DNA from: a virus
Lineage: Duplodnaviria; Heunggongvirae; Uroviricota; Caudoviricetes
Direction: 5' to 3' (one strand)
DNA length: 44,449 nucleotides
IMG/VR virus record: IMGVR_UViG_3300045993_000138
Positions within the stretch are counted from its first letter, which is position 1. The number at the start of each line of letters is the position of its first letter. Below are positions 3,767-44,449 of this stretch, piece by piece. The notes beneath the pieces were generated by a model, which saw only the letters and a program-made list of their open reading frames with translations, did no database searches and was not told the DNA's origin. The translations under genes and the position numbers were made by a program.

Positions 3767-4415
3767 AGAAACACAAAGCTGGAAATTGCTGTACAGAGTT
3801 CCGTGGTCAATATTGACTTGGTTTCTGCATGAAGTCTGCATTTTCCTTCCGCTCTATATTATTGGATTGGTATTGGTACCACTCGCTTTCTTAATCGGAA
3901 CAAAAGAAGACGATCTTGGATACCTTCACTTCAAATTACGTAAACTTATGTGGCTGTGGGATAACGATGAAGATGGAATCGATGGTCATAATTGGTGGGC
4001 AGACCAAAATGTAGGGAAATCTCAGTGGGGATTAGTCTGGAGTTGGTATTTAAGAAATCCAGTTAACAATTTGAAATACATTCCATATTTCAATCCAATC
4101 ATCACCAATCCATTACATAATCAGTACATCGGAACTGCAATGGATAACTCTTTGGAAGACACAGATCCGAGAGCAGAGAATCAGTGGTTTTTCTGCTGGA
4201 AATTTCCACATTGGGGATTTTACTATTACAATTTCAACCATGACAAAAAGACCTATACGAAATTCTTTTTGGGTTGGAGAATTCATCCACAAGATGATAT
4301 TTCATTCGATGAAAATGATCCAAGATGGGCACACAATGATCGTCGCTGGATCAATTACAAAAACAAGACACTTGGGTTTGCTGGACAGATGCGCGTAAAC
4401 CAAAAATTGAGTTGA
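3759..4415 (+). CDS. Trp-rich hypothetical membrane protein
   Basis: Hydrophobic N-terminal segment (about aa 12-46), WLWDNDEDGIDG motif, many Trp/Tyr residues. Confidence 0.6.
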   Translation: MSRETQSWKLLYRVPWSILTWFLHEVCIFLPLYIIGLVLVPLAFLIGTKEDDLGYLHFKLRKLMWLWDNDEDGIDGHNWWADQNVGKSQWGLVWSWYLRNPVNNLKYIPYFNPIITNPLHNQYIGTAMDNSLEDTDPRAENQWFFCWKFPHWGFYYYNFNHDKKTYTKFFLGWRIHPQDDISFDENDPRWAHNDRRWINYKNKTLGFAGQMRVNQKLS

Positions 4416-4440
4416 TTAAAGTTGGTGAATGCTGTATAAT
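4412..4440 (+). promoter_or_regulatory. sigma70-type early/middle promoter for gp47-gp46
   Basis: TTGATT-17-TATAAT. Confidence 0.7.
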
Positions 4441-4470
4441 GATTGGTATATATTTGTTTTGGATTAATTC

Positions 4471-5547
4471 ATGAAAGTTTGCGTGCTTGGAGATTCACAT
4501 TTCGGCATTCGTGGAGATAGTCTACAGTTTCATAACAACAATAAAAAGTTTTATGAAACTGTTTTCTTCCCATACCTGATTGAAAACGACATTAAGACCG
4601 TTATTCAAACAGGAGATCTATTCGACCGAAGAAAATTCGTCTCGTATCATACACTCCATCTTGCCAAGAAATACTTCTTCAACAGATTTGAAGAACTTGG
4701 TATCAAGCTCATAGTGTATCTTGGAAACCACGATACCTACTTCAGAAATTCACTGGAAGTAAATTGTGTCGAACTAACCCTTGTCGATTATATTGACAAG
4801 GGAGTGATTGAATGTATCAAGACTCCAGAAACCAGAGTATTCGATGGGGCTTCTATTGACATCATTCCTTGGATCTGTGAAGACAATGAGAAGCAGATTC
4901 TGGAGTTCATCAAGAATACCAAATCACACGTTTGTTTCGGACACTTCGAAATCTCTGGATTCGAAATGGATCGTGGTAACGTTTGTCATGATGGTATGTC
5001 CCGTGAAAAGCTTGATGTCTATGATATGGTTATATCTGGACACTTTCATCACAAGTCATCTGATGGACACATTTACTACGTAGGAACTCCTGCCGAATTT
5101 ACATGGGCAGATTATGGTGATCATCGTGGGTTCCATATCTTCGATACTAAGACGAGTGAATTGGATTTCATTGAGAATCCATATCGTATGTTCTATAAGA
5201 TCACATACGATGACAAAGTAGAAACACTTGAATCCATCAATGGCAAAGACTATGACCAGTATAAAAATACTTATGTCAAGGTAATCGTAGCAACAAAAGG
5301 TAATCCAGTTCTATATGATATCTTCTTAGAGAAGCTTTATGAAGTTTCTCCACAGGAAGTTACTATCGTTGAGGACTTTACAGATTATTCGGAAATTTCC
5401 GATGAAGACATTGTAGATCAGTCAGATGATACTATGACTACTCTGGATAAGTTCGTAGACACACTGGAAATGGGTCTGGATAAGAACAAACTCAAGACTG
5501 TCATGCGAGACATTTATCTACAAGCATTAAATGTGGAAACAAAGTGA
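4471..5547 (+). CDS. gp47: Recombination endonuclease subunit (Mre11/SbcD-like)
   Basis: Metallophosphoesterase motifs GDSHFG, GDLFD, GNHD, GHFE, GHFH. Confidence 0.95.
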   Translation: MKVCVLGDSHFGIRGDSLQFHNNNKKFYETVFFPYLIENDIKTVIQTGDLFDRRKFVSYHTLHLAKKYFFNRFEELGIKLIVYLGNHDTYFRNSLEVNCVELTLVDYIDKGVIECIKTPETRVFDGASIDIIPWICEDNEKQILEFIKNTKSHVCFGHFEISGFEMDRGNVCHDGMSREKLDVYDMVISGHFHHKSSDGHIYYVGTPAEFTWADYGDHRGFHIFDTKTSELDFIENPYRMFYKITYDDKVETLESINGKDYDQYKNTYVKVIVATKGNPVLYDIFLEKLYEVSPQEVTIVEDFTDYSEISDEDIVDQSDDTMTTLDKFVDTLEMGLDKNKLKTVMRDIYLQALNVETK

Positions 5548-7250
5548 TTATATTTAAGACATTAAGATGGAAGAATTTTCTTTCAACAGGTAATATCTGG
5601 ACCGAGATTGAACTTGATAAGTCTCCCAACACACTTGTGGTTGGAACTAATGGTGCTGGTAAATCCACGATGCTGGATGCACTGACTTTTGCGTTGTTTG
5701 GAAAGCCATTCAGAAACATCAATAAACCTACGCTATTGAATTCCATTAATCAGAAAGATTGCCTTGTCGAAGTAAATTTCAAGATCAATAGCAAGCACTA
5801 TAGAATTGTGCGTGGAATCAAGCCAGCCGTCTTTGAAATCTACATCGATGATATTCTGGTGGATCAGGATGCTGCCGCAAAGGATTACCAGCAAATCCTT
5901 GAGGAACAGATTCTAAAGTTTAATTACAAAGCATTCACACAGATCGTAATTCTAGGATCTTCTTCTTTCGTTCCGTTCATGCAACTTTCGGCAGCGGATC
6001 GTAGGACTATCATCGAAGATCTTTTGGGAATCGATATCTTTTCTGCTATGAACATAGTGGTGAAGGAAAGAGCGATGACGATCAAGAATCGTGGTTCGGA
6101 ACTAAAGATAGAAGTAGACACAGTTCTTTCCAAGATCGAACTTCAAAAGAAGTTCATTGAAGATGCTCAGAAGAACAACAAGGAACTTTCTCTTAGAAAG
6201 GAAGTAGATTATCAAGACCAGATTGCACAAATAGACAAACTGACTAAAGATGGTGAATTGGTGCAGAAGCATATCGATTCTCTGCTAAAGTCCATATCAG
6301 ACGAGAAAGTTCTGAAAGACAAGCAGAAGAAACTAGATCAGTTTGAGGCTAAGATCGAAGGTAATATTAACAAGGTCAAAAAGGATATTCAGTTTTACAC
6401 AGTAAATAGTACATGTCCAACCTGTGATCAGACCATTTCAAATGGAGAAGCAAAGGTACATGAGTGTAACTACAAGCTAAATGGATATTCGGAAGGTATC
6501 GCAAAACTTCAAGAAGAGTATAATAAGGTCAGTGAGAGACTTACTGAAATTACTGGTGTTCATAGGAAGATTAGTGAACACACTAGTGAGATTGCTCGTA
6601 TCAATGCATCAATCGTCCAGATACAAAAGTATGCCAGAAAACTCTCTGCCGAAATAGAGGATTTGCAAAGTAAGAAGGTTCTGTCGGAAGACATGATGAA
6701 TGTCTCAAAGGAACTTGTGGACAAACTTGAGACTCTAAACAAAGAACGTAGAGAACTGGTAGATACCAAGAACTATGTTGATATGGCATCGAGTCTCCTG
6801 AAAGACAGTGGAATCAAGGCTAAGATCATCAAACAGTATCTGCCAGTGATCAATAAGTTGGTAAACAAGTATCTTGCATCTATGGACTTCTTTGTTGCAT
6901 TCGAAATCAACGAAGAGTTCAAGGAAACCATCAAGTCACGCCACAGAGACGATTTCAGCTATAACAACTTCTCCGAAGGTGAAAGAATGCGTATTGATTT
7001 GGCATTGCTCTTCACATGGCGAGCAGTGGCTAAGATGAAGAACAGCATGAATACTAACCTACTCATTCTGGATGAAGTCTTCGATAGTTCATTAGATAAC
7101 ACTGGTACAGAAGAGTTCATGAAGCTAATTAATACACTTTCGGATACAAACGTGTTTGTAATATCACATAAGGGTGACGTTCTTCTTGATAAGTTCAAGA
7201 GTGTCGTCAAATTCGTAAAGAAAAACAATTTCAGTTACATAGAGAAATAA
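5544..7250 (+). CDS. gp46: Recombination ATPase subunit (Rad50/SbcC-like)
   Basis: Walker A GTNGAGKST, Q-loop FTQIV, zinc hook CPTC, signature FSEGE, Walker B LILDEVFD; GTGA start/stop overlap with gp47. Confidence 0.95.
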   Translation: MIIFKTLRWKNFLSTGNIWTEIELDKSPNTLVVGTNGAGKSTMLDALTFALFGKPFRNINKPTLLNSINQKDCLVEVNFKINSKHYRIVRGIKPAVFEIYIDDILVDQDAAAKDYQQILEEQILKFNYKAFTQIVILGSSSFVPFMQLSAADRRTIIEDLLGIDIFSAMNIVVKERAMTIKNRGSELKIEVDTVLSKIELQKKFIEDAQKNNKELSLRKEVDYQDQIAQIDKLTKDGELVQKHIDSLLKSISDEKVLKDKQKKLDQFEAKIEGNINKVKKDIQFYTVNSTCPTCDQTISNGEAKVHECNYKLNGYSEGIAKLQEEYNKVSERLTEITGVHRKISEHTSEIARINASIVQIQKYARKLSAEIEDLQSKKVLSEDMMNVSKELVDKLETLNKERRELVDTKNYVDMASSLLKDSGIKAKIIKQYLPVINKLVNKYLASMDFFVAFEINEEFKETIKSRHRDDFSYNNFSEGERMRIDLALLFTWRAVAKMKNSMNTNLLILDEVFDSSLDNTGTEEFMKLINTLSDTNVFVISHKGDVLLDKFKSVVKFVKKNNFSYIEK

Positions 7251-7251
7251 C

Positions 7252-7986
7252 ATGAGTGAAAAGAAAATCAAATTCGTTGATGGTGAGATGTATGAGTACG
7301 AGATTATGGATCTTGTCGATCCATATTCAGAAGTACTGAAAACAGTTACACCACATTTCGATTTCGAGAATCCACCAACAGATCCCAAGAAGCTTGGTAT
7401 ATCTCTTGTAGAAACAATGGTAAAGAATAATGGTGTTGGTCTTGCCGCACCACAAGTTGGTCTTCCATATCGTGTATTCGTAATGGGTGCCGAAGGTGTA
7501 GGATTCGCGTGTTTCAATCCAGAGATTCTAGAAGAGTATCATGGCTATGATAGATTTGAAGAGGGTTGCCTAAGTTTCAGAGGATTGTTCCTTTCTATCA
7601 ACCGTCCAGAAAGAGTAAAGGTTCGTTATCAGGATTGGAACGGTCTTGTCAAGGAAGAAACTTTCAGTGGACTCACTGGTAGAATTTTCCAACATGAACG
7701 TGATCATCTAGATGGTATTGTATTCACTTCGAAGGTTTCTAAGACTGTCTTGGAACGCGCAAAGGATAAAGTAAAAAGTAACTGCAAGAGATTGGATAAG
7801 CAGATTGCCATTCAGAAGGCAGCACAAAATGTTGTGAATCGTTCTAAAGGAACAATCAAGTCTTCGAAATTCAATACTCCAAATAGTGTCATCACTATTA
7901 AGGATCGAGTCGCGCCACCACTGCGTCAGACCACAAGTGAAGAAATCCCTATTTCTAAGCCAGATTCTACACCAGCCTCACTGTAA
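7252..7986 (+). CDS. def: Peptide deformylase with N- and C-terminal extensions
   Basis: All three PDF motifs: GVGLAAPQ, EGCLS, HERDH. Confidence 0.92.
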   Translation: MSEKKIKFVDGEMYEYEIMDLVDPYSEVLKTVTPHFDFENPPTDPKKLGISLVETMVKNNGVGLAAPQVGLPYRVFVMGAEGVGFACFNPEILEEYHGYDRFEEGCLSFRGLFLSINRPERVKVRYQDWNGLVKEETFSGLTGRIFQHERDHLDGIVFTSKVSKTVLERAKDKVKSNCKRLDKQIAIQKAAQNVVNRSKGTIKSSKFNTPNSVITIKDRVAPPLRQTTSEEIPISKPDSTPASL

Positions 7987-30541: not shown

Positions 30542-31240
30542 ATGGCAGGTAATGCAGGATTTCTTTACGAACAAAAAATAAACAAACTCTTGAAGAGTAC
30601 TGGTCTTCAAGATAAGAGTTTTCGTCCTGCCGGATCTGATTCAAATGCTCCTGATGCCATGCTTACTTTGGATGGGAAGGATCATAAGGTGGAAGTCAAA
30701 CTAGATCTAAAAGTTGATTTTGGTCAAGGATCTCTTGATTTCGATTTGAAAAAGAAACACTGGACTCTTGGTGGAGCAAACACAGAATCTGGAAAACAAA
30801 TGAGAGAGTTTCTTGAATCTATTGGAGTTCCGAAAATTGTGGATAAGGCATGGGGTAGAGAACCACCTAGAAAATTCACTGTGCCTTTAGCTAAATTTAA
30901 AAATCAAGATGTAGCATATGACTATACTAATTTCAGAGACAAATTTGTAAATATTCCATCTGACGCAGTTGCTAACTATTATGCAAGTAAGCACACATAT
31001 TACATGCAGGTTGGTGGTGGATACGGTTTATTCTATATGGGTGAGAACCCTGCAAAATTAGATATTCCAGAATTTAAGCCATCCCTAAGACTTAGAATTC
31101 GTCTAAAGCGCGGAGGCAGTAATCCAATATACAATTACAGATTCACAACAGCACTCCAAGCAACAACATTGAATAGGTCTAAAGTGGATCTTGAAGACAA
31201 AGTTGAATTAGAGGCAATGGCAGCAAGATCAAAAAAATAA
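30542..31240 (+). CDS. Putative PD-(D/E)XK restriction-fold nuclease
   Basis: E..I...L, then PD(AM) ... (V)EVK catalytic pattern (SNAPDAMLTLDGKDHKVEVKL), DFGQG, YY..K..YYMQ. Confidence 0.6.
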   Translation: MAGNAGFLYEQKINKLLKSTGLQDKSFRPAGSDSNAPDAMLTLDGKDHKVEVKLDLKVDFGQGSLDFDLKKKHWTLGGANTESGKQMREFLESIGVPKIVDKAWGREPPRKFTVPLAKFKNQDVAYDYTNFRDKFVNIPSDAVANYYASKHTYYMQVGGGYGLFYMGENPAKLDIPEFKPSLRLRIRLKRGGSNPIYNYRFTTALQATTLNRSKVDLEDKVELEAMAARSKK

Positions 31241-31242
31241 TT

Positions 31243-32226
31243 ATGACTATATTAATTACTGGCGGGTGTGGTTTTATTGGCACCAATTTTATCATAAATT
31301 TCGCAAAGCAGTTTCCAGACGAAACAATTATCAATCTAGACAAGCTAACGTATGCAGCAAATCTGGGTGTGGATGAACTTCATAAACGCTTTATCACCAA
31401 TAGAAGATATAAGCAATGTGTTGGTGACATTGGATCACATGCATTAGTACGTGATCTTATTGTAAAATACAAGCCAGAAATGATCATCAATTTCGCTGCC
31501 GAAAGCCACGTTGATCGTTCGATCAATGATTCTTCTCCTTTCATTAAAACCAATGTGATGGGAACAATGAACCTACTGGATTGCATTCGTAAATACGTAA
31601 CTTGGGATTATAGGTTTCTCCATGTCTCTACAGATGAAGTATATGGTTCTCTCTTACTTGAAGATCCACCATTTACAGAACAAACTCCATACGATCCAAG
31701 ATCACCATATTCAGCCTCAAAGGCAGCATCAGATCATCTGGTAAACGCATATCGACATACACACGGTCTTCAGACAATTATTACTAATTGCTCCAATAAT
31801 TATGGTCCTTTTCAACATCAGGAAAAGTTCATTCCTACAGTAATTTTAAAGGCACTCGGAGGTGAAAAGATTCCTGTGTATGGAAACGGTGCCAATATTC
31901 GTGATTGGATATATGTAGAAGATCACTGTGATGCTCTTATCAAAGTTTTATTGGAAGGTAGGATTGGAGATAAGTATAATATCGGTGGAAAAGAAGAGAA
32001 GACTAATTTGGATATCGCAAAGTATATTCTAAATTATCTTGAAATTTCACACGATATGATAGATTTTGTAGAAGACCGAAAGGGGCATGATTTTCGATAT
32101 GCCATAGATACCACAAAGATAGAATTAGGTTTGGGTTGGTATTCTAAGACATTTTTCAGTAAAGGTATTGAAAAGACTATCGAGTGGTACTCCAGCCATC
32201 GATATTTGTTCCGTCAAATCATATAA
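31243..32226 (+). CDS. rmlB: dTDP-glucose 4,6-dehydratase
   Basis: ITGGCGFIG, DKLTYA, FAAESHVDRSI, STDEVYGSL, YSASKA, NCSNNYGP, RDWIYVEDH, DRKGHD.RYA. Confidence 0.95.
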   Translation: MTILITGGCGFIGTNFIINFAKQFPDETIINLDKLTYAANLGVDELHKRFITNRRYKQCVGDIGSHALVRDLIVKYKPEMIINFAAESHVDRSINDSSPFIKTNVMGTMNLLDCIRKYVTWDYRFLHVSTDEVYGSLLLEDPPFTEQTPYDPRSPYSASKAASDHLVNAYRHTHGLQTIITNCSNNYGPFQHQEKFIPTVILKALGGEKIPVYGNGANIRDWIYVEDHCDALIKVLLEGRIGDKYNIGGKEEKTNLDIAKYILNYLEISHDMIDFVEDRKGHDFRYAIDTTKIELGLGWYSKTFFSKGIEKTIEWYSSHRYLFRQII

Positions 32227-32239
32227 AATATAAGAAATC

Positions 32240-32246
32240 CTAAATA
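32240..32246 (+). promoter_or_regulatory. Possible late promoter (CTAAATA variant) opening the internal-protein cluster
   Basis: CTAAATA 34 nt upstream of the 32280 ATG, at the transition from replication genes to CTS-bearing genes. Confidence 0.45.
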
Positions 32247-32279: not shown

Positions 32280-32903
32280 ATGATAACATTTAGAGCCTTT
32301 TTACAAGAAAATCAATCCGAAAATGCAGGACACCTGCACGTTTTCGATGTCGATGAAACCCTCTTTCGAACCCATGCCAAAGTCCATGTCATGCATGGAG
32401 ACAAACACGTAGCTGCCCTGTCAAATCAGGAATATAACACTCATAAGCTACCTGCTGGACACCATTACGATTACCATGAGTTCCGTAATGCCGACCATTT
32501 CCATAAAACTTCCGATCCTATTCACGGCATGATTGCGAAGTTCAAGGCTATCCACAATAACATCAAGGATAAGCCAAACCACCATGTCATCATCAACACT
32601 GCCCGTGCTGATTTCGATGACAAACACAAGTTCCTAGACAAATTCCGTAAGCATGGAATCGACATAGATCGAAGCCATGTCTATCGTGCAGGTAACTCTG
32701 ATGGTGGCAAATCCGTAGCCGAACGTAAAACAGATATAATTCACCATCACCTAAATACTGGTAAGTACAAGAAAGTGTCTTTGTATGACGATAGTAAGGA
32801 AAATCTAAACCATTTTCTTGGATTACAGAAGCACCATCCACAAGTCAAGTTTCACGCATTTCATGTCCAGCACGATGGACATGTGAAAGTCCATAGGGAA
32901 TAA
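32280..32903 (+). CDS. His-rich HAD-family phosphatase with N-terminal capsid-targeting-like sequence
   Basis: MITFRAFLQE start; HAD motif I FDVDET, motif II NTAR, motif III K, motif IV YDDS; 30 of 207 residues are His. Confidence 0.75.
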   Translation: MITFRAFLQENQSENAGHLHVFDVDETLFRTHAKVHVMHGDKHVAALSNQEYNTHKLPAGHHYDYHEFRNADHFHKTSDPIHGMIAKFKAIHNNIKDKPNHHVIINTARADFDDKHKFLDKFRKHGIDIDRSHVYRAGNSDGGKSVAERKTDIIHHHLNTGKYKKVSLYDDSKENLNHFLGLQKHHPQVKFHAFHVQHDGHVKVHRE

Positions 32904-32904
32904 T

Positions 32905-33090
32905 ATGAAGACATATAAAGAGATCATAGCAGAAATATCATCCAAGACAGCCAAGTGGAACGCTTTTATGGCACGCGCCAGAGAAAACGAAAAGCATTGG
33001 GATGATTACGCAAATGCAAAGCCGGAAGACAGACCTAATACTGTTATTGGAAAAAGCGTAGCCAAGAAGAAAACATACAAGAAGATGTAA
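32905..33090 (+). CDS. Small internal-protein-like basic peptide
   Basis: MKTYKEIIAE closely resembles the T4 IP capsid-targeting sequence MKTYQEFIAE; TAATG coupling. Confidence 0.7.
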   Translation: MKTYKEIIAEISSKTAKWNAFMARARENEKHWDDYANAKPEDRPNTVIGKSVAKKKTYKKM

Positions 33091-33614
33091 TGAAAACATT
33101 CAAGCAATATCTAAACGAGTCCGTGCATGATCATCTTGATCATTTTGTGGGCTTTGCCAGCAATCATCTAGGTCTGGATAATCCTCCAAGCATTGAACTT
33201 GTAGACGACAAGGAACATGCACAGGAGAATGCATCGTTTGGTGGTTATTCTCCGAGTGACCATTCTATCAAAGTGAACATTGCAGGAAGACATACTGCCG
33301 ACGTTTTCAGGACTCTTGCACACGAATTAGTGCATCACAAACAGAACCTAGATAATCGTATCCAACACGATTCTGGAGCAACTGGAAGTGACATTGAGAA
33401 TGAAGCAAACAGTCAGGCTGGCGTGATCATGAGAAACTATGCCAAGGCAAACAGAGCAATCTTTGAAGCAAGAAGAAAGCCACAGAATCCTGCTGACTAT
33501 CCTCATGTTCAGAATGCTCTATTAGGTAAAAAGAGAAAGGTTATGTTCTCAGCAGACAAGCCAGAAAAAAAGGTTCGCAAAGGTCGTGTTCGTTGGCACA
33601 TAGAAAAGATGTAA
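33090..33614 (+). CDS. Zincin-like metallopeptidase with capsid-targeting-like N-terminus
   Basis: MKTFKQYLNE start; TLAHELVHHKQ (HExxH) and downstream ENEAN third-ligand motif. Confidence 0.75.
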   Translation: MKTFKQYLNESVHDHLDHFVGFASNHLGLDNPPSIELVDDKEHAQENASFGGYSPSDHSIKVNIAGRHTADVFRTLAHELVHHKQNLDNRIQHDSGATGSDIENEANSQAGVIMRNYAKANRAIFEARRKPQNPADYPHVQNALLGKKRKVMFSADKPEKKVRKGRVRWHIEKM

Positions 33615-34576
33615 TGAAGACATTCAAGACATTCCTATCAGAAAACCAAGTCTTGTCTGAGTCTATCAGACAGGGTTTACCTCATATTCATTCGATGTCT
33701 CATGAGCAATTTGGAAACCTTGTAAAAGGTGGAAAAGTTCATGTTCATGATGTTACCGAAAAAACTGACGGAATGACTCACCAGTTTGGTCATGATGAAC
33801 ATGGATTTTATTCTCAAAGTTCTGGATCCGGGTCAGAGAAAATGAGAAAACCATCTGATTTTCATGACAGAGCAAAGAAGAGAGCAAAAGAGACTGGTAA
33901 GCCATATGATTCGACCGCTGCCGATGCCTTTGCTCACATTCATTCTACACTTCTCAATAATAAGGCATTACAGCATCATTTGAAGTCTGAATATCACAGA
34001 ACCGGCAAGGAAGTCAAAGTCAAAGGTGAGGCATTCTACAAGCCACTTTCAAGACCTTCTGAAGAACATAAAGATGAAATCAAGTTCGTAGGAACCTCGT
34101 ATCATCCACATCACATGGGAAGTGTCGGTAAGTACGTAATTCATTCCAAGCTTCCAGAAAACCAACATGTCGATATAGAACATCACAAGAAGCACCTATC
34201 TAATAGTGAGATGAATTTCGATGATGACAAGATCGAACACAAACAATCCCATGTCAGTGTCAAAGACGAGCATAGTAAATTCCAAAAACTGGATCATACC
34301 TTGTTGAGATCAAGAACGACAAAGACGAATAAAGAAGCGAAGATGAAAGAGGTAGCCAAGTTTGATCAAATCAAACATGCAGTATCTCATAAAGTTGACA
34401 GTCATATTGCATCCAAGAGCATCAAACCAAAGTGGGGTTCTGGAACTGAGGGTCTTGTAGTTCATCCTTCTGAAAAGAACGCAGATGCTCCAAGATTCAA
34501 GGTCACTTCACAAACGTTCAGAGACTATAAAGCCGATTCTTCAAACAAAGAAAAATTCAAGTCGAGAAGTAAGTAA
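33614..34576 (+). CDS. His-rich RNA/DNA-ligase-like nucleotidyltransferase with capsid-targeting-like N-terminus
   Basis: MKTFKTFLSE (ATG 33614, TAATG coupling, preferred over TTG 33593); motif I TEKTDG, III KGEAF, IV EGLVV, V RFKV. Confidence 0.7.
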   Translation: MKTFKTFLSENQVLSESIRQGLPHIHSMSHEQFGNLVKGGKVHVHDVTEKTDGMTHQFGHDEHGFYSQSSGSGSEKMRKPSDFHDRAKKRAKETGKPYDSTAADAFAHIHSTLLNNKALQHHLKSEYHRTGKEVKVKGEAFYKPLSRPSEEHKDEIKFVGTSYHPHHMGSVGKYVIHSKLPENQHVDIEHHKKHLSNSEMNFDDDKIEHKQSHVSVKDEHSKFQKLDHTLLRSRTTKTNKEAKMKEVAKFDQIKHAVSHKVDSHIASKSIKPKWGSGTEGLVVHPSEKNADAPRFKVTSQTFRDYKADSSNKEKFKSRSK

Positions 34577-36036
34577 TGTATACATTTAAGCAATTTCTAA
34601 AAGAAGGTGGCAATATAAAAATTGGCGCAGTAGGTGCCGATCCAATTCATGTCACTGAAAAATCAAGAGATGGCACTGCCGCTGAAATTCACAAAACACT
34701 AGGCGCGATACACGATTCTTTTCATAAAGAACACGGCGAACACCTTTTCGGAAAAGGTAAGAAGGCATTATTCTCAGGATCGGCGTTTGCCGGTTCAACC
34801 AAGCATTTGATGAATCAACACATTCCAGATGCAGAATATGCACACCACAAGCCAAATACTGGTGACATCGACGCTCAGATTCCAAAAGAACACAAAGAAG
34901 CACTTGCCAAGCACCTTACCACAGGTAAGAAGTTTGGTAATTATACTGTAGTCGGTACTAAGAAACATGGCAATGAAGTGTCGGCAGTAATGAGGCATAA
35001 TAATGGTGCCCATCACCAGTTCGATTTCGAAGCAGCAGATTACCACAAGGACGAGCCAACAAAAGGTGAACAGTTTGCTCACAGTTCTAGTTGGGAAGAT
35101 ACCAAGCATGGTATTAAGGGAATGCACCACAAGACACTCTTGAATGCGGCAGGTGGAAGTGTCCATAAATTCTCTATCACTCACGGACTTCGTTCAAGAA
35201 CCGATGAATCCAAGCCCGGCACAAATGATCCTGATGAAGTTTCACACACTCTATTCGGAAAAGATGCAAACCACAAGAAGGTACATTCTTTCGTTGGAGT
35301 CTCTGACCTAATCAAGAAGCATATAAATCCTAGCCGTCATCAAGAAATCTATGATAAATTCAAGGATGACATGGGAAAGAAGAAAGGTGATCACACCGCT
35401 GCCCTACAGCACTTGAAGAAAACATTGGGTACAAAAGACCTAATCAAAGAATCAGATGAAGTACATCATACATCAGTAGTTCCATTGACTGGATTTTCTC
35501 CTATTTCGCACATGGGTCATGCTCTAGATTTGGGTGGAGCAATGAAGAAACTTCCCGGTACAAAGCATATTGGAATATCATCCAAGTCTGACTTGTATTC
35601 ACCAAAAGAAAGATCAGATATACTCCATAAACAATGGGGACACAAGGATCTAAATACTCATGTAGTAAAGTCTGGTGGAGAGACGATTGCCGCAGCACAT
35701 GCATCTCTTCCAAAGACTGGTAAGAAAGTCCTACACCTATTAGTCGGAGCGGATAGACTGGATTTTGCCGAGAAGTTGAAGCACTCTCTTGCTGCCGGAA
35801 AAATCAAAGAAATGCACGGCAAGCATTTTGACGAGGTTCATGTTCATACTCCAGAAAATTCAGAGAGAAGTCACGGAATGTCTGGAACCAAGATGCGAAC
35901 AGCAGCTTCTGCTGGTGATCTAAATACTTTCCACAAACATTTGGGATCTGCCTTTACTAAGAAAGAAGCTCAACAGCATATGTCGAAAATTCAAACAGCA
36001 ATGAAATCTGGTAAACTATCGGTTAAAAGAAAATGA
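34576..36036 (+). CDS. Fusion of Pol-beta-type nucleotidyltransferase and HIGH-family cytidylyl/adenylyltransferase, His-rich, with capsid-targeting-like N-terminus
   Basis: MYTFKQFLKE start; AGS...GDID and QFDFE (Pol-beta triad); linker LIKE; FSPISHMGH, LVGADR, GMSGTKMR (HIGH/KMSKS-like). Confidence 0.72.
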   Translation: MYTFKQFLKEGGNIKIGAVGADPIHVTEKSRDGTAAEIHKTLGAIHDSFHKEHGEHLFGKGKKALFSGSAFAGSTKHLMNQHIPDAEYAHHKPNTGDIDAQIPKEHKEALAKHLTTGKKFGNYTVVGTKKHGNEVSAVMRHNNGAHHQFDFEAADYHKDEPTKGEQFAHSSSWEDTKHGIKGMHHKTLLNAAGGSVHKFSITHGLRSRTDESKPGTNDPDEVSHTLFGKDANHKKVHSFVGVSDLIKKHINPSRHQEIYDKFKDDMGKKKGDHTAALQHLKKTLGTKDLIKESDEVHHTSVVPLTGFSPISHMGHALDLGGAMKKLPGTKHIGISSKSDLYSPKERSDILHKQWGHKDLNTHVVKSGGETIAAAHASLPKTGKKVLHLLVGADRLDFAEKLKHSLAAGKIKEMHGKHFDEVHVHTPENSERSHGMSGTKMRTAASAGDLNTFHKHLGSAFTKKEAQQHMSKIQTAMKSGKLSVKRK

Positions 36037-37181
36037 ATCACTTTAAAGCAATATTCCTCGTTGGCGGACCAGGGAGTGGGAAGGACTTTCTCATTCACTC
36101 GACTCTAAACGAGCATAATCTGAAAGAAGTTTCTATGGAGAGAGTTTTCAATGCCATTGTTAAAGGAACAAACATTGAAGAATTGCATAGCTTTCCATCA
36201 GTCATTGTCAATGGAAATGCAGAGAATCTAGATAAGGTTCTCGTATCCAAGGCAGTCCTAGAATCTATGGGTTATGACACTGCAATGATCTATGTGTATA
36301 CCACCGATGAGGAATCAAAGAGTAGAAATGACAAGAGGATATCACGCGGTGCAAAAACATTTAATGAGAGTGTTCGTAAGCATAAATATCAATGTGCATT
36401 ATCAAACGTTCATCAATTCACTGAGATGTTTGATGCCTTTGCTATTTACGATAATTCCAATAACTTCTCAAACGTAAACGAACAGAAGAATAAAGAGATA
36501 GCAAGTTGGCTGTTAGAGTTGACAGAAACTGTCTCTGCATTTCTTTCAAAGATGCCTAAGAATGAAGCTGCACTAGCATGGATTGCAGAACGTGTGTTGG
36601 AAGTAGGCACGGACGAAACTGCCGCATTTGCCAAAGCAATAACACCAGGTCAAGGAACAAACAATGTTAGAACCTATCAAGAAGCTGATGAAGCAACTAA
36701 GCCACGCTGCAAAACGTGCAATGGGGCTTGTAAGTGTGGACAGAATCCAGCCACTGAGAGAACTGGAGGAACGAGTGTTGCAAACGCTTCAACTTCCGAG
36801 AGAACCTACGCAGCAGAAGGATTACATAGACACGTTAGAAATTCCATCAAAAAAGCCAAAGAAGAAGTCTGCGAAGAAAAAGTCGGCAGCAAAAAAGAAG
36901 GCACCAAAAAAGTCGCCAAAGTAACCAACACACCATCCAACTATGACAGAGCGGGTTCTGTTGCAGTTGGATCTATGGGTGTTTCTAGTGTAGCAGAAGC
37001 CGAAAAGATCAAAAAGAAGAAGCTTCTTCCGGGGTCTACCGAACTCAAGCCACTCTACAATACTGTAAATCTTGGTAACTCTGGTCTAGTCGGACCTTGG
37101 GGACAGACTGCCGAGGGAACTTCCTTTGATAAACTCAGAGAAAAGATCTCGACAAAAATAAGAACAGAAGAGATAGGATAA
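36033..37181 (+). CDS. P-loop kinase (Pnk/zeta-toxin/AAA_33-like) with processed-looking C-terminal tail
   Basis: AIFLVGGPGSGK, LESMGYDTAMIYVYT, S..RN..R..RG lid; C-terminal half low-complexity with CKTCNGACKC and several xxE sites. Confidence 0.7.
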   Translation: MNHFKAIFLVGGPGSGKDFLIHSTLNEHNLKEVSMERVFNAIVKGTNIEELHSFPSVIVNGNAENLDKVLVSKAVLESMGYDTAMIYVYTTDEESKSRNDKRISRGAKTFNESVRKHKYQCALSNVHQFTEMFDAFAIYDNSNNFSNVNEQKNKEIASWLLELTETVSAFLSKMPKNEAALAWIAERVLEVGTDETAAFAKAITPGQGTNNVRTYQEADEATKPRCKTCNGACKCGQNPATERTGGTSVANASTSERTYAAEGLHRHVRNSIKKAKEEVCEEKVGSKKEGTKKVAKVTNTPSNYDRAGSVAVGSMGVSSVAEAEKIKKKKLLPGSTELKPLYNTVNLGNSGLVGPWGQTAEGTSFDKLREKISTKIRTEEIG

Positions 37182-37185
37182 TACC

Positions 37186-37707
37186 ATGAATTACTTAAGC
37201 GCAAACAAGATCAACAAGAGCATGAAGGAAGCAGTAGAAACTGCTATGGCATTCACTCCAGACCCACGCGCACATTTGATTGAAAGACTAAAAGTTCTTC
37301 TTGCAAATGGCTATGTGTTCTATTATGATGCCCACTCGGCACACTGGAATATAGTTGGATCCAACTTCCCTCAGTATCATTCATTCTTTGAGAAGGTCTA
37401 TACTCAGGTTTATGAAGAACTTGATGACATTGCGGAACGCATTCGTATCATCAATGGTCTGGTTCCTCTTTACATCAAGGATCTTTTGAATCTTTCCACG
37501 ATTGAAGGAAATCTAGGTGGAACTGGTGCCGTAACACTCTTGAACAGACTAGAATTTGATAATAAGGTGTTTCTGTATAACCTTAAAGAATGTTTCGAAT
37601 TAGCAGAACATGCAGAAGAAGTCGGATTGTCGAATTTCCTACAGGATCGTATCGACGCACACAAAAAACTAGAATGGATGATCGAATCCACACTCAAAGG
37701 CGAATAA
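37186..37707 (+). CDS. dps: Dps/ferritin-like DNA protection protein
   Basis: HWNIVG..FPQYH.FFE..Y......LDDIAERIR ferroxidase signature; H.K..WM. Confidence 0.9.
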   Translation: MNYLSANKINKSMKEAVETAMAFTPDPRAHLIERLKVLLANGYVFYYDAHSAHWNIVGSNFPQYHSFFEKVYTQVYEELDDIAERIRIINGLVPLYIKDLLNLSTIEGNLGGTGAVTLLNRLEFDNKVFLYNLKECFELAEHAEEVGLSNFLQDRIDAHKKLEWMIESTLKGE

Positions 37708-37710
37708 GAA

Positions 37711-38940
37711 ATGAATATATTCTCAAAGACAAATAGATCAATTGCAGATGCAGCCGCAAAATGCATGGCAGAACATCCAGCAAAACTGAATGACTATAAG
37801 CCTACAGAACCACATGCGGATAACTCTATGGTAAACAGAGTGGTTGCAACCTGTGCAGATCCTCATTTTGGCAAGCCAAGTCACTTGAATGCTGCCACCA
37901 GTCACATCAAGGAAGATGTAGAATCTATTGATGAACTCAAGAAGTCCACACTCGCTTCATATGCAAAGGCAGCGGCGCGAGATGCAGTACACCACTTTGC
38001 GTCTTCTGCTAGACATTCAGAGAGGGGCAACGAAAAACTTTCTAATAAAGACGCTGATATCGCAGACAAGAGACTTCATGGTGTTCATGTGGCAGTTGAT
38101 AAACTTGCTAAGAAAGAAGTTCAGATTGATGAACTCAATAAGTCTACACTTGCTTCGTATATCAAGAAGGCATCAGATAGTGCCGTAGACAAGGCATCAG
38201 AAGGTGGCTGGAAGCACGCACTCCATCTTCATGTAGATGACGAGAAAGGCAAGGATGATGGAGAGAAGGAAGATCATAAGGCATTCATGCGTGTTCAGGG
38301 AATCAAGAAGGCTGCTGGAAAGCTTGCCAAGGAAGAAGTTCAGATTGATGAACTCAAGAAGTCCACACTTGTTTCATATCGTGATAAGGCTGGCAAAGAT
38401 TTAACAAATCATATGTCTGCTTTGAACACTGCGAAGAGTAAAGGAGAATGGGACAACCATATCAATAAGGCACAAAAAAGATATAAAGGTCTTGCTACAG
38501 CAGGAGATAAGCTTCTTGGAAATAAGAAGCCATATAGAGGCGATAGAGAAGAACTTGATGAAGTCAAGAAAAGTGTTTCTTGGAATCCACCAGAAGTTCA
38601 GGCGAAGTATGCCAAGGAAAAGAAAGAAGCAAAAATGTTTGCTTCTGCGAAGCGTGAAATCAATAGCCAGAAGAAGAAAGAACTCACCAAGGAAGATAAT
38701 CTAAGTGGTGGAAACACTAGTAATAATGATTACTCTGCAACTCTTCCAGCACCAGTGAAGACCAAGAAGACTAATAAGCTTGGTCAGGTTGCCGAATGGA
38801 TGAAGGATTCTGGATGGCACAAGCGCACTCCTGATACAATCACAGATAAGTCTGGTGCAAAACACACCAGAATGTCCGCTGCCCGTGATCTTGCTCGCAG
38901 AGCACTGAAGAAAAACAAAGAAAAGAAGGCGAAGGAATAA
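37711..38940 (+). CDS. Internal head/core repeat polyprotein
   Basis: Four modules of about 70 aa beginning (E)V(Q/E)IDEL(K/N)KSTL(A/V)SY or ELDEVKKS; Lys/Ala/His-rich. Confidence 0.65.
   Translation: MNIFSKTNRSIADAAAKCMAEHPAKLNDYKPTEPHADNSMVNRVVATCADPHFGKPSHLNAATSHIKEDVESIDELKKSTLASYAKAAARDAVHHFASSARHSERGNEKLSNKDADIADKRLHGVHVAVDKLAKKEVQIDELNKSTLASYIKKASDSAVDKASEGGWKHALHLHVDDEKGKDDGEKEDHKAFMRVQGIKKAAGKLAKEEVQIDELKKSTLVSYRDKAGKDLTNHMSALNTAKSKGEWDNHINKAQKRYKGLATAGDKLLGNKKPYRGDREELDEVKKSVSWNPPEVQAKYAKEKKEAKMFASAKREINSQKKKELTKEDNLSGGNTSNNDYSATLPAPVKTKKTNKLGQVAEWMKDSGWHKRTPDTITDKSGAKHTRMSAARDLARRALKKNKEKKAKE
37927..38370 (+). repeat. In-frame dispersed DNA repeat ATTGATGAACTCAA(G/T)AAGTC(C/T)ACACT, three copies
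   Basis: Copies at 37927, 38125 and 38344 (spacing 198 and 219 nt); a degenerate fourth copy near 38554. Confidence 0.85.
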
Positions 38941-38944
38941 TCAA

Positions 38945-41674
38945 ATGAGAACACCACTAAAAGGTCATCCATACCACAGCAAGTCAGACGCAGAACTTCA
39001 CTACATCATAAAAGATGCTGGTGAAGCAAGATACAATGCCCACGGAATGGGTGATCGTGCGGCACACTCAAAATATGCTGATCAGGTCAACGATGCCGTT
39101 ACTGTATTGCATTACAGAAGAAATGGTGGAAAGCAGTTGGAGCGTCCTGTAGCAGAAGCATGGGGTGCAAATCGTGGTGATGTATTCGGCAAGAGTCGCA
39201 GTAATTTCAAAAGATCTGAATTAAATCATGAATTGGGTCATGAAGATGGAACAACTCGCCCAAAGAAGAAGCCATATGATCCTCGTTCTTTGAGAGATAT
39301 CATCAATGGTGTGAAGAAACCAGTAAATGAAGTAGATCATATTCAAAATCAGATACATGGAATAGCTGAAGAAACTGTCCTTGAATATGACTCAGAAGGA
39401 TACAAAGGAACTCGCGAAGACGACGACATGTATAAGGGAAAGCCTCAGAAGGGAAAGCTTATTTCTGCCGATAAGATGAAAAAAGATACCGCAAAGATCT
39501 TGAACAAGCAATACGCGAAGACAGTGAAGGCTGTCGTTTCTCATAAAGGCGAGATCAAGCACACCATGACAGATCACAATGGCAATCCAGTAACCATCAA
39601 GAATGGTGTTGTTACTAGAGTGGCAGAAGAAAATCTTGATGAACTCTCAAAAGGTACTCTAAAGTCCTATATTGAAAAGACCAATGCAGAGAATACTCCA
39701 ACCAAGAAGATTGGCACAAGAATCTCTGGTCTTTGGAAAGCCAACAAGAAGCTCGCAAAGAAGATCAAGGTGAACGAAGATCATGATACATGGCGAAAAG
39801 AAATGGAAAAGAAAGGTGCTAAGGTTTTCAAAAGTGATGATCCAGAATCTCCAAAGACAACACGCGCACTAAAGGTTGTTGATGGCAAGCATGTTCGTGT
39901 TGGTTCCTATGATCATGAAAATAATGAAGCAATCAACGAATCAATCGAACCATACAAAAGACCAGAAGCAGTAAAACTGAATACTGACAGAGAACTTCAT
40001 GATGCAGTTCCAAAGGCTATATTCAGAGCATTGATCAAGCATCCTGTATTCAAAGCCAGCCATGTTCGCAATCGTTTTAATGGAAACACATCAACATATA
40101 GTCACACAAAGCACAGTGACAATTTTCACCAGATTGAAGTTCATACTCACCCATATCTAACCACATTCCATGTGAGTAAGGGATCTCGCGGACCTGGTAA
40201 AGTTTCTGCGTATCATCACATGATTGCGGCTAAGGAAAAGCGTGATGGTCATGACGTATTCCATACACTAAAGACACATGGATATGAACACGATGTAAAC
40301 CATATTGATGAAGGTTTCTCGTTCTTCAAGAAGAAGATCAAGGCACTTGCAAAGACAGAAATCAAGAGAGACGAACCAAAAGAATCAGATAAGGCTCCAC
40401 GTACTGGAGATTATGAATACAATCAGCATACTGGAAAGTATTATACCAGAGAAGGTGTGGAAGTGGAACTTGATGAAGTATCTGCTGCTGGTCATACTCC
40501 AAATAGCATTGGTATGCATGGTAAAGATCATGTTGTGATCACACACAATCATGGAACATCCTATTACAACATTCATTCTAAGGAACTATCAGAGGCTCAA
40601 GGTGTTGAAAGGCTAAAGAGAAAATTCCTACCATTCTACGGCAAGAAAGTTGCTGATTCCCGTGCAGCAGATCACGATTATGCTGCTAAAGAGATTCGTA
40701 TGGATCATGAATTTTCTAAGCCATCAGAGAGTGATCGAAAGAAGATAAGATCACATAATAAGGCAGCAAGCAAGTATGATGATATTGCTAGTGGAATTCA
40801 CGAAGCATCACGTTTCGGAAACAAGAGTGCAACTCTAATGCGTGGCAAGCTTTCCAAGGCAATGCAAGCAAGACTTGCAGCACGTTCTGGTGTGAAGCCA
40901 GCCGAGAAGACTACGATCTCCAAGACACAGGCAGGAAAGACTGTCAAGAAGCCAGAACTTTCTGATGCCGAAAAGAAGAGCAGATTGTCACACATCGCCA
41001 CTGCCGCCGAGAAGCACAAGCGTGGTGAGATCATGGCGGCAGCACAGGATAACCGTAAGTCATTCGGTGGAAGTCACATGGGTGATTTCGTAGGAATGAT
41101 GGGTGCTTCTATGGGAAGAGGCAGAACTTATGGAGAGTCTGTGGATAGTGTAAAAAAAGATGATAAGGCATGGGAAAAAGTTCATGCTAATTCTACAGGT
41201 CCAATAGATCGTCTAGGAACTCGTATTGTTGCAAGACTTATGCATGGTACTAAGATCGATAGAAAAACTGGAAAAGCATTACCAAGAACTAACGAAGATG
41301 TAGAACAGGTCGAAGAATCCAAAATTACAAAGCCAGAAGCAGAAGCCGCTCTAGAAAAGTCTGGTTCACGCGGAGTGGATTTCCATACCCTAAGATCAGA
41401 TCAGGTCCAGCGTCTTCATGACTTTGCGAAGGAACTAGGATATCGTAAGTCCAAGACTGCACCAGGATCTACTGCTCGTATGTTCCACCAGCATCTTCAC
41501 AAAATCGTGAAGGAAGAGACTGTGGAAGAAGAACTAAAGGTTGGCGAGAAGGATGAAGGCACCAAGTCCAGAATGAGAAGGAAGTATCTCGGAAACAAGC
41601 GTGGACGTACTGCAACTGGATCAAAGGCACATGCCGTTGATGTAGAACCAACACTGACAACCAGAAGCCAGTAA
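38945..41674 (+). CDS. Large modular internal head polyprotein
   Basis: 909 aa of basic His/Lys-rich modules separated by acidic (V/L/I)xE sites: PVAE, PVNE, VLE, NLDE, VNE, INE, IDE, ELDE, IHE, QVEE, TVEEE; shares DELSKGTLKSY with the previous ORF's repeat. Confidence 0.65.
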   Translation: MRTPLKGHPYHSKSDAELHYIIKDAGEARYNAHGMGDRAAHSKYADQVNDAVTVLHYRRNGGKQLERPVAEAWGANRGDVFGKSRSNFKRSELNHELGHEDGTTRPKKKPYDPRSLRDIINGVKKPVNEVDHIQNQIHGIAEETVLEYDSEGYKGTREDDDMYKGKPQKGKLISADKMKKDTAKILNKQYAKTVKAVVSHKGEIKHTMTDHNGNPVTIKNGVVTRVAEENLDELSKGTLKSYIEKTNAENTPTKKIGTRISGLWKANKKLAKKIKVNEDHDTWRKEMEKKGAKVFKSDDPESPKTTRALKVVDGKHVRVGSYDHENNEAINESIEPYKRPEAVKLNTDRELHDAVPKAIFRALIKHPVFKASHVRNRFNGNTSTYSHTKHSDNFHQIEVHTHPYLTTFHVSKGSRGPGKVSAYHHMIAAKEKRDGHDVFHTLKTHGYEHDVNHIDEGFSFFKKKIKALAKTEIKRDEPKESDKAPRTGDYEYNQHTGKYYTREGVEVELDEVSAAGHTPNSIGMHGKDHVVITHNHGTSYYNIHSKELSEAQGVERLKRKFLPFYGKKVADSRAADHDYAAKEIRMDHEFSKPSESDRKKIRSHNKAASKYDDIASGIHEASRFGNKSATLMRGKLSKAMQARLAARSGVKPAEKTTISKTQAGKTVKKPELSDAEKKSRLSHIATAAEKHKRGEIMAAAQDNRKSFGGSHMGDFVGMMGASMGRGRTYGESVDSVKKDDKAWEKVHANSTGPIDRLGTRIVARLMHGTKIDRKTGKALPRTNEDVEQVEESKITKPEAEAALEKSGSRGVDFHTLRSDQVQRLHDFAKELGYRKSKTAPGSTARMFHQHLHKIVKEETVEEELKVGEKDEGTKSRMRRKYLGNKRGRTATGSKAHAVDVEPTLTTRSQ

Positions 41675-44360: not shown

Positions 44361-44449
44361 ATGAGAACCTTCAAAGAGTTTCGAAATCTAGATGAAAAAT
44401 TCCACGATGATCTATTCGGGGAATATACCCATGCTCTTAGAAATCATGG
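44361..44449 (+). CDS. Partial ORF with capsid-targeting-like N-terminus (runs off the window)
   Basis: MRTFKEFRNLDEKFHDDLFGEYTHALRNH...; RBS AGGA. Confidence 0.65.
   Translation, partial: MRTFKEFRNLDEKFHDDLFGEYTHALRNH

Follow-up and report, generated by a model that had tools for sequence, protein, structure and literature searches.

The window analysed here is a 44,449-nt stretch of viral DNA from the IMG/VR record IMGVR_UViG_3300045993_000138, and it carries a cluster of adjacent genes (32280-37181) encoding putative nucleic acid end-processing enzymes. It corresponds to bases 68059-112507, minus strand, of a 178.7-kb contig estimated to be about 95% complete. The contig belongs to a divergent T4-like myovirus, which encodes tail tube gp19, UvsY, UvsW, gp46/47, the gp44 clamp loader, the gp43 polymerase, UvsX and the gp41 helicase. 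The best cultured relatives of its polymerase were cyanomyoviruses (48% identity), and a megablast search of the region against cultured phages revealed no DNA-level match. From 32280 to past 42171, open reading frames (ORFs) are arranged head to tail with gaps of 0-4 nt or overlaps of 1-4 nt. The cluster is positioned after the replication genes, not the head genes. Five consecutive ORFs (32280-36036) begin with a shared leader, M-x-T-[FY]-[KR]-x-[FIY]-[LI]-x-E. The proteins that they encode are named HAD, the 61-aa ORF, HExxH, LIG and NT-CT in the following, where NT and CT denote the two domains of one protein (34576-36036) and NTase stands for nucleotidyltransferase.

32280-32903, + strand: HAD phosphatase, 207 aa; leader MITFRAFLQE (32280-32309) and DVDET motif (32346-32360)
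32905-33090, + strand: 61-aa Lys-rich internal-protein-like ORF; leader MKTYKEIIAE
33090-33614, + strand: HExxH zincin-like protein, 174 aa; leader MKTFKQYLNE, HELVH motif (33321-33335) and an AIFE site before a basic tail
33614-34576, + strand: LIG, 320 aa, new family of adenylyltransferases within the ligase superfamily; leader MKTFKTFLSE and a second site, VLSE
34576-35442, + strand: NT domain, Pol-X-like NTase of the Pol-beta superfamily; leader MYTFKQFLKE (34576-34605)
35443-35451, + strand: I290-K291-E292, predicted prohead-protease site in the NT-CT linker (pLDDT, the model confidence, below 50 at residues 290-294)
35461-36036, + strand: CT domain, HIGH-type (HxGH / SxTxxR), NMNAT/PPAT-like

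The leader was searched for with a strict pattern (^M.[TS][FYW][KRQ].[FYILMV][LIVM].E) among all starts of ORFs of at least 50 aa on both strands of the genome (n = 3814). Only these five ORFs matched, while a rough expectation from residue frequencies was about 0.03. Synonymous codons differ among the five leaders; therefore, the peptide is conserved and is not a DNA repeat. An earlier note on this DNA, made from the sequence alone, had described an MxTF(K/R)xFLxE start on the first three enzymes. That start was confirmed and, in the broader form given above, extends to all five consecutive ORFs, as the note had passed over the 61-aa ORF (32905-33090) and the HExxH ORF (33090-33614).

All five leaders end with a hydrophobic-x-Glu triplet of the gp21 type (FLQE, IIAE, YLNE, FLSE and FLKE). 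In T4, the capsid-targeting sequence (CTS) of the highly basic internal proteins is MKTYQEFIAE, which is cut once by the protease gp21 (PMC8442874), and any protein fused to the T4 CTS stays in the head (PMC8442874; PMC3012670). All the T4 internal head proteins bind the core via the CTS, and gp21 cleaves after Glu, for example at ITE-6 and LTE-619 in Alt (PMC5694885). The leader of the 61-aa ORF, MKTYKEIIAE, is identical to the T4 CTS at eight of ten positions. The phage encodes its own gp21-family prohead protease (PF03420, E = 3.7e-34), located 2.5 kb upstream of the window. Looser copies of the leader, MKTFSQYIQE and MKTFKEFLLTE, start two small proteins encoded between the portal gene and the prohead protease gene, and a leader-like start was found on one more ORF near the end of the window.

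L001 3217-2747 and 2282-2004, - strand, upstream of the window: two small leader-bearing proteins
44361 onward in the window (G000:C1:66939-68147, L031), minus strand of the contig: ORF of 402 aa, starting MRTFKEFRNLDE, with a canonical ATAAATA in front

The protein starting with MKTFKEFLLTE (92 aa) is extremely Arg/Lys-rich and gave a weak match to a head scaffolding PHROG (E = 0.012). The T4 core proteins gp67 and gp68 are encoded between the portal and the prohead protease, and the two small proteins beside the protease are probably gp67/gp68-like core proteins. In the major capsid protein, a maturation site was predicted at the propeptide end by alignment logic with T4 gp23 (ILAE/AGG; here and below the slash marks the boundary after Glu). 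The ORF at 44361 has a leader-like start only; family searches gave no match for it or for the 61-aa ORF.

Comparison of homologs indicated that the leader is a modular element. LIG relatives either possess a leader or start directly at a conserved IRQG(L/I)PH. Among NT relatives, that of Vibrio phage Va1 is leaderless and starts at GGN, while that of the T4-like Campylobacter phage CP220, gp100, starts with MKLSELMFILE/GGN; CP220 is a cultured phage. In the metagenomic contig L025, LIG, NT and CT are three separate genes, all of them leaderless. The HAD homologs have a leader 4-14 residues before the catalytic Asp in nearly all of 120 sequences. Glu10 is at least 90% conserved in HAD homologs, and E10-G11-G12-N13 is invariant in the NT-CT homologs (n = 45). 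In AlphaFold models, the leader lies outside the fold, with a pLDDT of 38 in NT-CT and 67 in LIG. The presence of a leader does not cleanly track that of the gp21 protease, since Va1 has a gp21-type protease together with its leaderless NT homolog.

The same motif was also found inside proteins. The linker between NT and CT is disordered (pLDDT below 50) and varies in sequence and length among homologs, but [LIVM]-x-E is kept at the position aligned with I290-K291-E292 in 40 of the 45 NT-CT homologs, while the background density of such triplets is about 0.01 per residue. In fused relatives, hydrophobic-hydrophobic-x-E/GGN is kept before NT, [LIVM]-x-E is kept before CT, and I-[FY]-E is kept at the junction of HExxH-HAD fusions. 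Two fusions retain a full internal leader, FKRFILE/GGN in P0011 and SFRDFIAE/E in P0003. Because the leader motif recurs at internal domain junctions, it is not a feature of start codons or translation. At the junctions, the motif has the character of a processing site, and the fusions resemble polyproteins; neither the linker site nor these polyprotein relatives had featured in the earlier note.

The leader-bearing proteins also have an unusual composition. The five most His-rich of the 186 ORFs are HAD (14.5%), NT-CT (10.1%), LIG (9.7%), HExxH (7.5%) and the ORF at 44361 (6.7%), while the median is 1.96%; their isoelectric points (pI) range from 9.1 (HAD) to 9.9 (the ORF at 44361). LIG relatives with a leader contain more Lys than those without (11.0% versus 7.7%, p = 3e-5) and have a higher pI (9.1 versus 7.3, p = 2e-5) in a comparison that ignores kinship. 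The earlier note had proposed that these enzymes are packaged in the virion. The match to the T4 CTS, the gp21-type protease, the modular leader, the junction sites and the basic His-rich cargo support this proposal well at the computational level. From these features we infer loading into the head, cleavage and injection, and the leader is quite probably a capsid-targeting sequence.

The enzymes recognized in the earlier note, namely a HAD phosphatase (DVDET/DD), a ligase-fold adenylyltransferase (EKTDG, GE, EGLV, FK) and a Pol-beta NTase fused to a HIGH-type transferase, were all borne out by motif conservation, with the last two also supported by fold searches. LIG starts at the ATG at 33614 and not at the TTG at 33593. 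Its motif set is complete, comprising the motif I KxDG lysine (Lys50, encoded at 33761-33763 inside TEKTDG) and motifs III, IV and V on an adenylyltransferase fold. Among 51 family members, K50 and G280 are invariant, and D52, G53, E139, E279 and K296 are at least 90% conserved. The AlphaFold model has a pLDDT of 94.7, and every top Foldseek match was a ligase, as were the top matches of VIA. In this fold search, RNA ligases ranked above DNA ligases. The best match was NgrRnl (5cot), a nick-sealing RNA ligase of the Naegleria/Deinococcus Rnl5 type, with an identity of 11%. Unlike Rnl5, LIG has no OB-like domain at its N-terminus, and it carries helical inserts of its own (residues 80-130 and 217-267). 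The model shows the adenylyltransferase domain alone, lacking any OB or DNA-binding domain.

LIG had no match in Pfam, NCBIfam or PDB sequence and profile searches, and fold searches of the AlphaFold Database clusters and Swiss-Prot did not find a closer named relative. Hidden Markov models (HMMs) of Rnl1 (PF09511) and Rnl2-REL (PF09414) found nothing in the genome at E <= 1. Two distant LIG relatives gave sub-threshold matches to the RNA_ligase family PF09414 (1.2e-3 and 5.5e-3). The phage encodes a separate canonical DNA ligase, similar to gp30. The LIG family comprises 129 clusters at 50% identity. Taken with the model, the conserved motifs support LIG as a ligase of the classical type, which adenylates a lysine and joins 3'-OH to 5'-PO4 ends; its family is new, and its fold is nearest to RNA ligases.

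In the NT-CT protein, G73, D97, D99, D150, H312-x-G314-H315, S436, T438 and R441 are invariant among 45 homologs, and S74 is at least 90% conserved. The family includes at least 299 clusters at 90% identity, all named hypothetical. According to the fold search, NT resembles gap-filling Pol X as much as RNA NTases, and Foldseek also listed the toxin NTase MenT3/TglT. The protein has no Pfam match, and the HMM of RlaP (PF10127) found nothing in the genome at E <= 10. The CT domain carries the HxGH and (I)SxTxxR motifs on a Rossmann-like fold and is not distinguishable from PPAT; the CTP_transf_like HMM had no match in the genome. Enzymes with the NMNAT/PPAT fold move AMP to a phosphate or carboxylate. 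Therefore, either nicotinamide mononucleotide (NMN) or the terminal phosphate of a polynucleotide would be a chemically reasonable acceptor for CT.

The HAD protein contains DVDET (residues 23-27) and YDDS, and no variation was seen at D23, D25, T27, D170 and D171 among 36 homologs. Its family comprises 330 clusters. It matched phrog_415, annotated as polynucleotide kinase (2.3e-7), and its 36 relatives matched Acid_phosphat_B (11 of 36), DUF2608 (nine of 36) and HAD_SAK_2 (once). Its atlas neighbours include HAD_SAK_1 clusters; the HAD_SAK_1 HMM had no match in the genome. The HExxH protein gave weak matches to Peptidase_M91 (0.024), the phage metalloprotease phrog_87 and XopG (0.013). PDB sequence and profile searches returned nothing meaningful for HAD, HExxH, NT-CT or the kinase encoded behind them.

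36033-37181, + strand: kinase (KIN), P-loop protein of the Zeta_toxin/AAA_33 class with GGPGSGKD; C-terminal half Lys-rich and of low complexity

The identity of KIN as a P-loop kinase is supported by a Pfam Zeta_toxin score of 26.2 bits (cut-off 22.3). Its membership of a packaged kit, which the earlier note had proposed with less certainty, was not supported. Its N-terminus is the beta1/P-loop itself and contains neither a Glu site nor a cleavable leader, so targeting by the CTS-like stretch MNHFKAIF was rejected. The composition is ordinary (2.1% His), and an ortholog was found in only one of 22 related loci (L002). KIN is thus probably not cargo and should be dropped from the packaged core.

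Gene neighbourhoods were compared among these 22 related viral loci, a check that the earlier note had suggested. The pair of LIG and NT-CT lies downstream of gp41 in all the related loci spanning both genes, often accompanied by HAD. In the same loci, NT and LIG are always adjacent, and they are fused in many proteins, a genomic role like that of RlaP. The fusion orders found were LIG-NT-CT, LIG-CT-NT, LIG-CT, LIG-NT, NT-LIG, LIG-NT-CT-HExxH(-DUF6321) and HExxH-HAD. HExxH is fused to HAD in L002, P0285, P0293, P0314 and P0367, and stands behind LIG-NT-CT in P0006. Fusions could merely economise on leaders; the leaderless three-gene version in L025 argues for a real functional unit. Since LIG, NT and CT are kept together there and occur in several domain orders, they appear to share a pathway that is independent of delivery. 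The predicted complex of LIG and NT-CT scored 0.24, under the mark, and was given no weight either way.

The cultured phage Va1 (MK387337.2, L029) encodes its leaderless NT homolog, Va1_161 (4004-5158), near an annotated CCA-adding enzyme. Two genes downstream, Va1_166 (6478-7932, 484 aa) carries the ligase-like motifs KTDG, EGVIL and LLKW and a CTP_transf_like domain. Searches of Va1_166 with the LIG profile by hhalign and hmmsearch were not significant, and the ligase-like motifs are only a lead. Va1_161 and Va1_166 are possibly a cultured version of the triad of LIG, NT and CT.

These features suggest the following sequence of events. During prohead assembly, the leader of about ten residues would bind the scaffolding core, as the T4 CTS does, and a gp21-type prohead protease would then remove it after Glu. 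The same protease would probably cut NT-CT at I290-K291-E292 and the polyproteins of relatives at every domain junction. The mature enzymes, basic and rich in His and Lys, would remain associated with the DNA in the head and be delivered into the cell together with it. There, HAD would remove a blocking phosphate, NT would restore missing nucleotides at the 3' end, and LIG would seal the break as a 3'-OH/5'-PO4 ligase. The NMNAT/PPAT-like adenylyltransferase and the zincin-like protein would complete the end-processing module. The substrate would most likely be RNA (tRNA) broken by anti-phage nucleases of the host, repaired before phage genes are expressed.

We give a probability of roughly 0.5 to the reading that the five leader-bearing genes encode head cargo forming a ligase-centred end-repair module, with RNA or tRNA as the likeliest substrate. 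RNA itself, as the substrate, stands at about even odds. It is favoured because the LIG fold is nearest to RNA ligases, two LIG relatives have sub-threshold RNA_ligase matches, RlaP offers a precedent, a CCA-adding enzyme is encoded close to the NT homolog of Va1, HAD shows hints of the Swiss-Army-Knife type and DNA sealing is already covered by a gp30-like ligase. The broader proposal, that uncultured T4-like phages of a large clade load a complete RNA/tRNA repair machine, often as a polyprotein cut by the prohead protease, and inject it against RNA-cleaving abortive infection, is tentative.

Several points weigh against this reading. HAD appears nearest to the acid-phosphatase-B and DUF2608 types, and NT falls outside PF10127 and, as modelled, is as similar to Pol X as to RNA NTases. 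End repair leaves the role of the NMNAT/PPAT-like domain unexplained. No cultured phage was found to carry the ligase in a tblastn search with LIG. As for packaging, late transcription is hinted at by one CTAAATA at 32240, and the composition comparisons lack phylogenetic independence. The hydrophobic-x-Glu conserved before GGN might in principle have a structural cause, an idea that the leaderless members speak against. Leaderless versions further show that the module works when made inside the cell too.

Some of these observations also fit a shared N-terminus that is not capsid-targeting, in which case the enzymes would be cytoplasmic and the peptide would have another use, for instance in mutual assembly, in directing the enzymes to the membrane or replisome, or in coupling translation. 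Homologs function without the leader, the cluster follows replication genes instead of head genes and has no canonical TATAAATA, and Va1 combines a gp21-type protease with a leaderless NT homolog. Against this, the leader is nearly the T4 CTS (8/10), occurs on proteins beside gp21, recurs internally at domain junctions and varies in synonymous codons, and the basic, His-rich shift is specific to leader bearers. We consider this explanation rather unlikely. A similar standing is given to a packaged kit that acts on DNA, that is, an injected break- and end-repair set (3'-phosphatase, Pol-X-like gap filler and ligase) that would mend the entering phage DNA at nicks, gaps or restriction cuts in the manner of PNKP/Pol beta/Lig3 or bacterial LigD. 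Its appeal is that basic proteins would lie on the DNA in the head, that Dps-like and other DNA-related genes are present in the same operon, and that NgrRnl, the best ligase match, is described as sealing duplex nicks with an RNA 3'-OH strand (PMC4408790). However, RNA ligases outrank DNA ligases for LIG, the model has no OB or DNA-binding domain, a canonical DNA ligase is already present in the phage and the leaderless homologs of Va1 lie near tRNA-maturation genes. The RNA healing and sealing suggested by the earlier note thus stays plausible through the RNA-ligase fold and the RlaP theme; the HAD subfamily and the substrates of the kinase and the HIGH domain do not settle it, and a DNA-end reading fits the structure about equally.

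The earlier note had also suggested NAD resynthesis, a claim that came out weakly. The HIGH domain would then act as an NMN adenylyltransferase alongside the kinase and the phosphatase, all three handling nucleosides or nucleotides and being injected against NAD-depleting defences. HxGH and SxTxxR are invariant, the relatives of HAD match 5'-nucleotidase and acid-phosphatase models, and the P-loop of the kinase is similar to that of nucleotide kinases. On the other hand, the HIGH domain is indistinguishable from PPAT, Nampt (PF04095) was not found in the genome, NADases produce ADP-ribose and nicotinamide and not NMN, and conservation of the module does not extend to the kinase. Such a cofactor kit also leaves the obligatory partnership or fusion with a ligase and a Pol-beta NTase unexplained, and we regard it as very unlikely. 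The same low probability applies to packaged enzymes that modify the host as effectors, for example with the NTase AMPylating or nucleotidylating proteins, HExxH cleaving defence proteins or the ligase-like protein attaching covalent tags, and with fusions reflecting shared delivery only. Pol-beta NTases and peptidases of polyvalent proteins are predicted to act on proteins (PMC5512222), HExxH is weakly similar to injected type III effectors of the NleD/XopG type, MenT3/TglT is listed for NT, and fusion under one leader could economise on targeting. This idea is opposed by the conservation of the complete ligase motif set and by the occurrence of LIG, NT and CT together as three leaderless genes in L025 and in several domain orders.

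The setting of the cluster includes the following features.

32240-32246, + strand: CTAAATA, possible variant late promoter, 33 nt 5' of the first gene
37186-37707, + strand: Dps/ferritin-like protein (Pfam Ferritin, 6.3e-17) in the same operon; leaderless, pI 5.3

The earlier note had described the cluster as one late operon. The genes are tightly coupled, with gaps of a few nucleotides or short overlaps. A late operon is not established, as TATAAATA was not found near the cluster and CTAAATA is the only hint. Over the whole genome, six of the 17 coding-strand copies of CTAAATA are upstream of ORFs compared with 6.8% expected, an enrichment of about five-fold. For ATAAATA, the word used by structural genes, this number is 10 of 22 copies against the same expectation. 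CTAAATA and the first ATG flank a perfect TATAAT at about 32263.

On the 5' side, the cluster is preceded by a 232-aa protein (30542-31240; phrog_26930) and a dTDP-glucose 4,6-dehydratase-like epimerase (31243-32226). On the 3' side, orthologs of the Dps/ferritin-like protein are found downstream of the module in most of the related loci. It is followed by two large Lys-rich basic proteins of 409 aa (37711-38940) and 909 aa (38945-41674), both with a pI of 9.6. These proteins contain a repeated motif, [IL]-D-E-L-x-K-[SG]-T-L-x-S-Y, which includes an [IL]-x-E triplet and a K-[ST]-T-L-x-x-Y-[IA] portion similar to the N-terminal leader; relatives are present in L004, L006 and L017. Possibly they too are head-internal proteins, in which the repeats would serve as internal signals for targeting or cleavage. 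ARAGORN detected five tRNA genes on the 178.7-kb contig.

In relatives, the same leader was also seen in front of DUF6321 (PF19846), as MKSFKGFISE, MHSFAEFIAE and MLSFKQYIAE.

L002 15486-15989, L008 13806-14177 and L017 13462-13767: DUF6321
C-terminus of P0006: DUF6321, at the end of a LIG-NT-CT-HExxH polyprotein

DUF6321 is a candidate for another cargo domain. In this genome, a search for it gave a weak match only (E = 0.008), located outside the cluster.

If the leader works as in T4, the known range of internal proteins would widen from small inhibitors and one ADP-ribosyltransferase to whole ready-made multi-enzyme pathways. The prohead protease would then double as a polyprotein-processing enzyme, and phages would answer RNA- or DNA-cutting defences at time zero. 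The analysis also defines three abundant uncharacterised families (LIG, NT-CT and HAD) with conserved catalytic residues and, for LIG and NT-CT, high-confidence models. These families are targets for enzymology and possibly a source of new ligase or end-modifying reagents. The grammar of leader and junction sites offers a simple sequence rule for predicting the cargo proteomes of phages from metagenomes.

A literature search did not find a description of such a packaged kit, and several known systems share parts of it. The closest for delivery are IPI, IPII, IPIII and Alt of T4, which have a shared leader of about ten residues ending in hydrophobic-x-Glu, a gp21-family protease and a variety of basic proteins that follow one unchanging tag. 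Alt, an enzyme that T4 injects, undergoes a further cleavage within its chain at LTE. Unlike the T4 internal proteins, the predicted cargo here consists of nucleic-acid enzymes, is markedly His-rich and, in relatives, forms multi-enzyme polyproteins with protease-type sites at every junction. For repair, T4 Pnkp has a kinase and a DxDxT phosphatase fused in one protein, whereas here they are encoded separately, three genes apart, and belong to other subfamilies; nor is the kinase conserved. LIG has no HMM-level membership in Rnl1 or Rnl2, and the cluster adds Pol-X-like and NMNAT-like domains. The Pnkp and Rnl enzymes of T4 are made after infection and are not packaged.

The name of RlaP, a Pol-beta NTase family, reflects its association with RNA ligases; before ligation, it adds one or two nucleoside monophosphates to damaged RNA 3' ends, which restores the function of repaired tRNA (PMC12776372; PMC7824862). 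RlaP and the Swiss-Army-Knife HAD proteins of RNA repair follow the same logic as the cluster, in which an RNA-ligase-type enzyme and an independent HAD phosphatase are close genomic companions of a Pol-beta NTase. Unlike RlaP, NT has no PF10127 match, lies structurally closer to Pol X, forms a fusion with a HIGH-type NTase and bears a leader. Polyvalent proteins of phages and conjugative elements (Iyer et al. 2017, PMC5512222) likewise have multi-domain, co-delivered enzymes and a zincin-like peptidase, with a predicted action at the time of entry. In that survey, 2H phosphoesterase domains were never found with RNA ligases, and a capsid targeting sequence is not mentioned (PMC5512222). In the phage described here, by contrast, a T4-type leader would deliver the enzymes and a prohead protease would process them. 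The NAD+ salvage modules (Nampt with NMNAT, and NadR) include a partner that makes NMN, either Nampt or an NR kinase; here Nampt (PF04095) had no match in the genome, and KIN does not accompany the module in most related loci. Compared with all of these systems, what appears to be new is the combination of delivery and repair logic, together with the ligase family, the Pol-X-like/HIGH fusion, the polyproteins with protease-type sites and the His-rich cargo signature.

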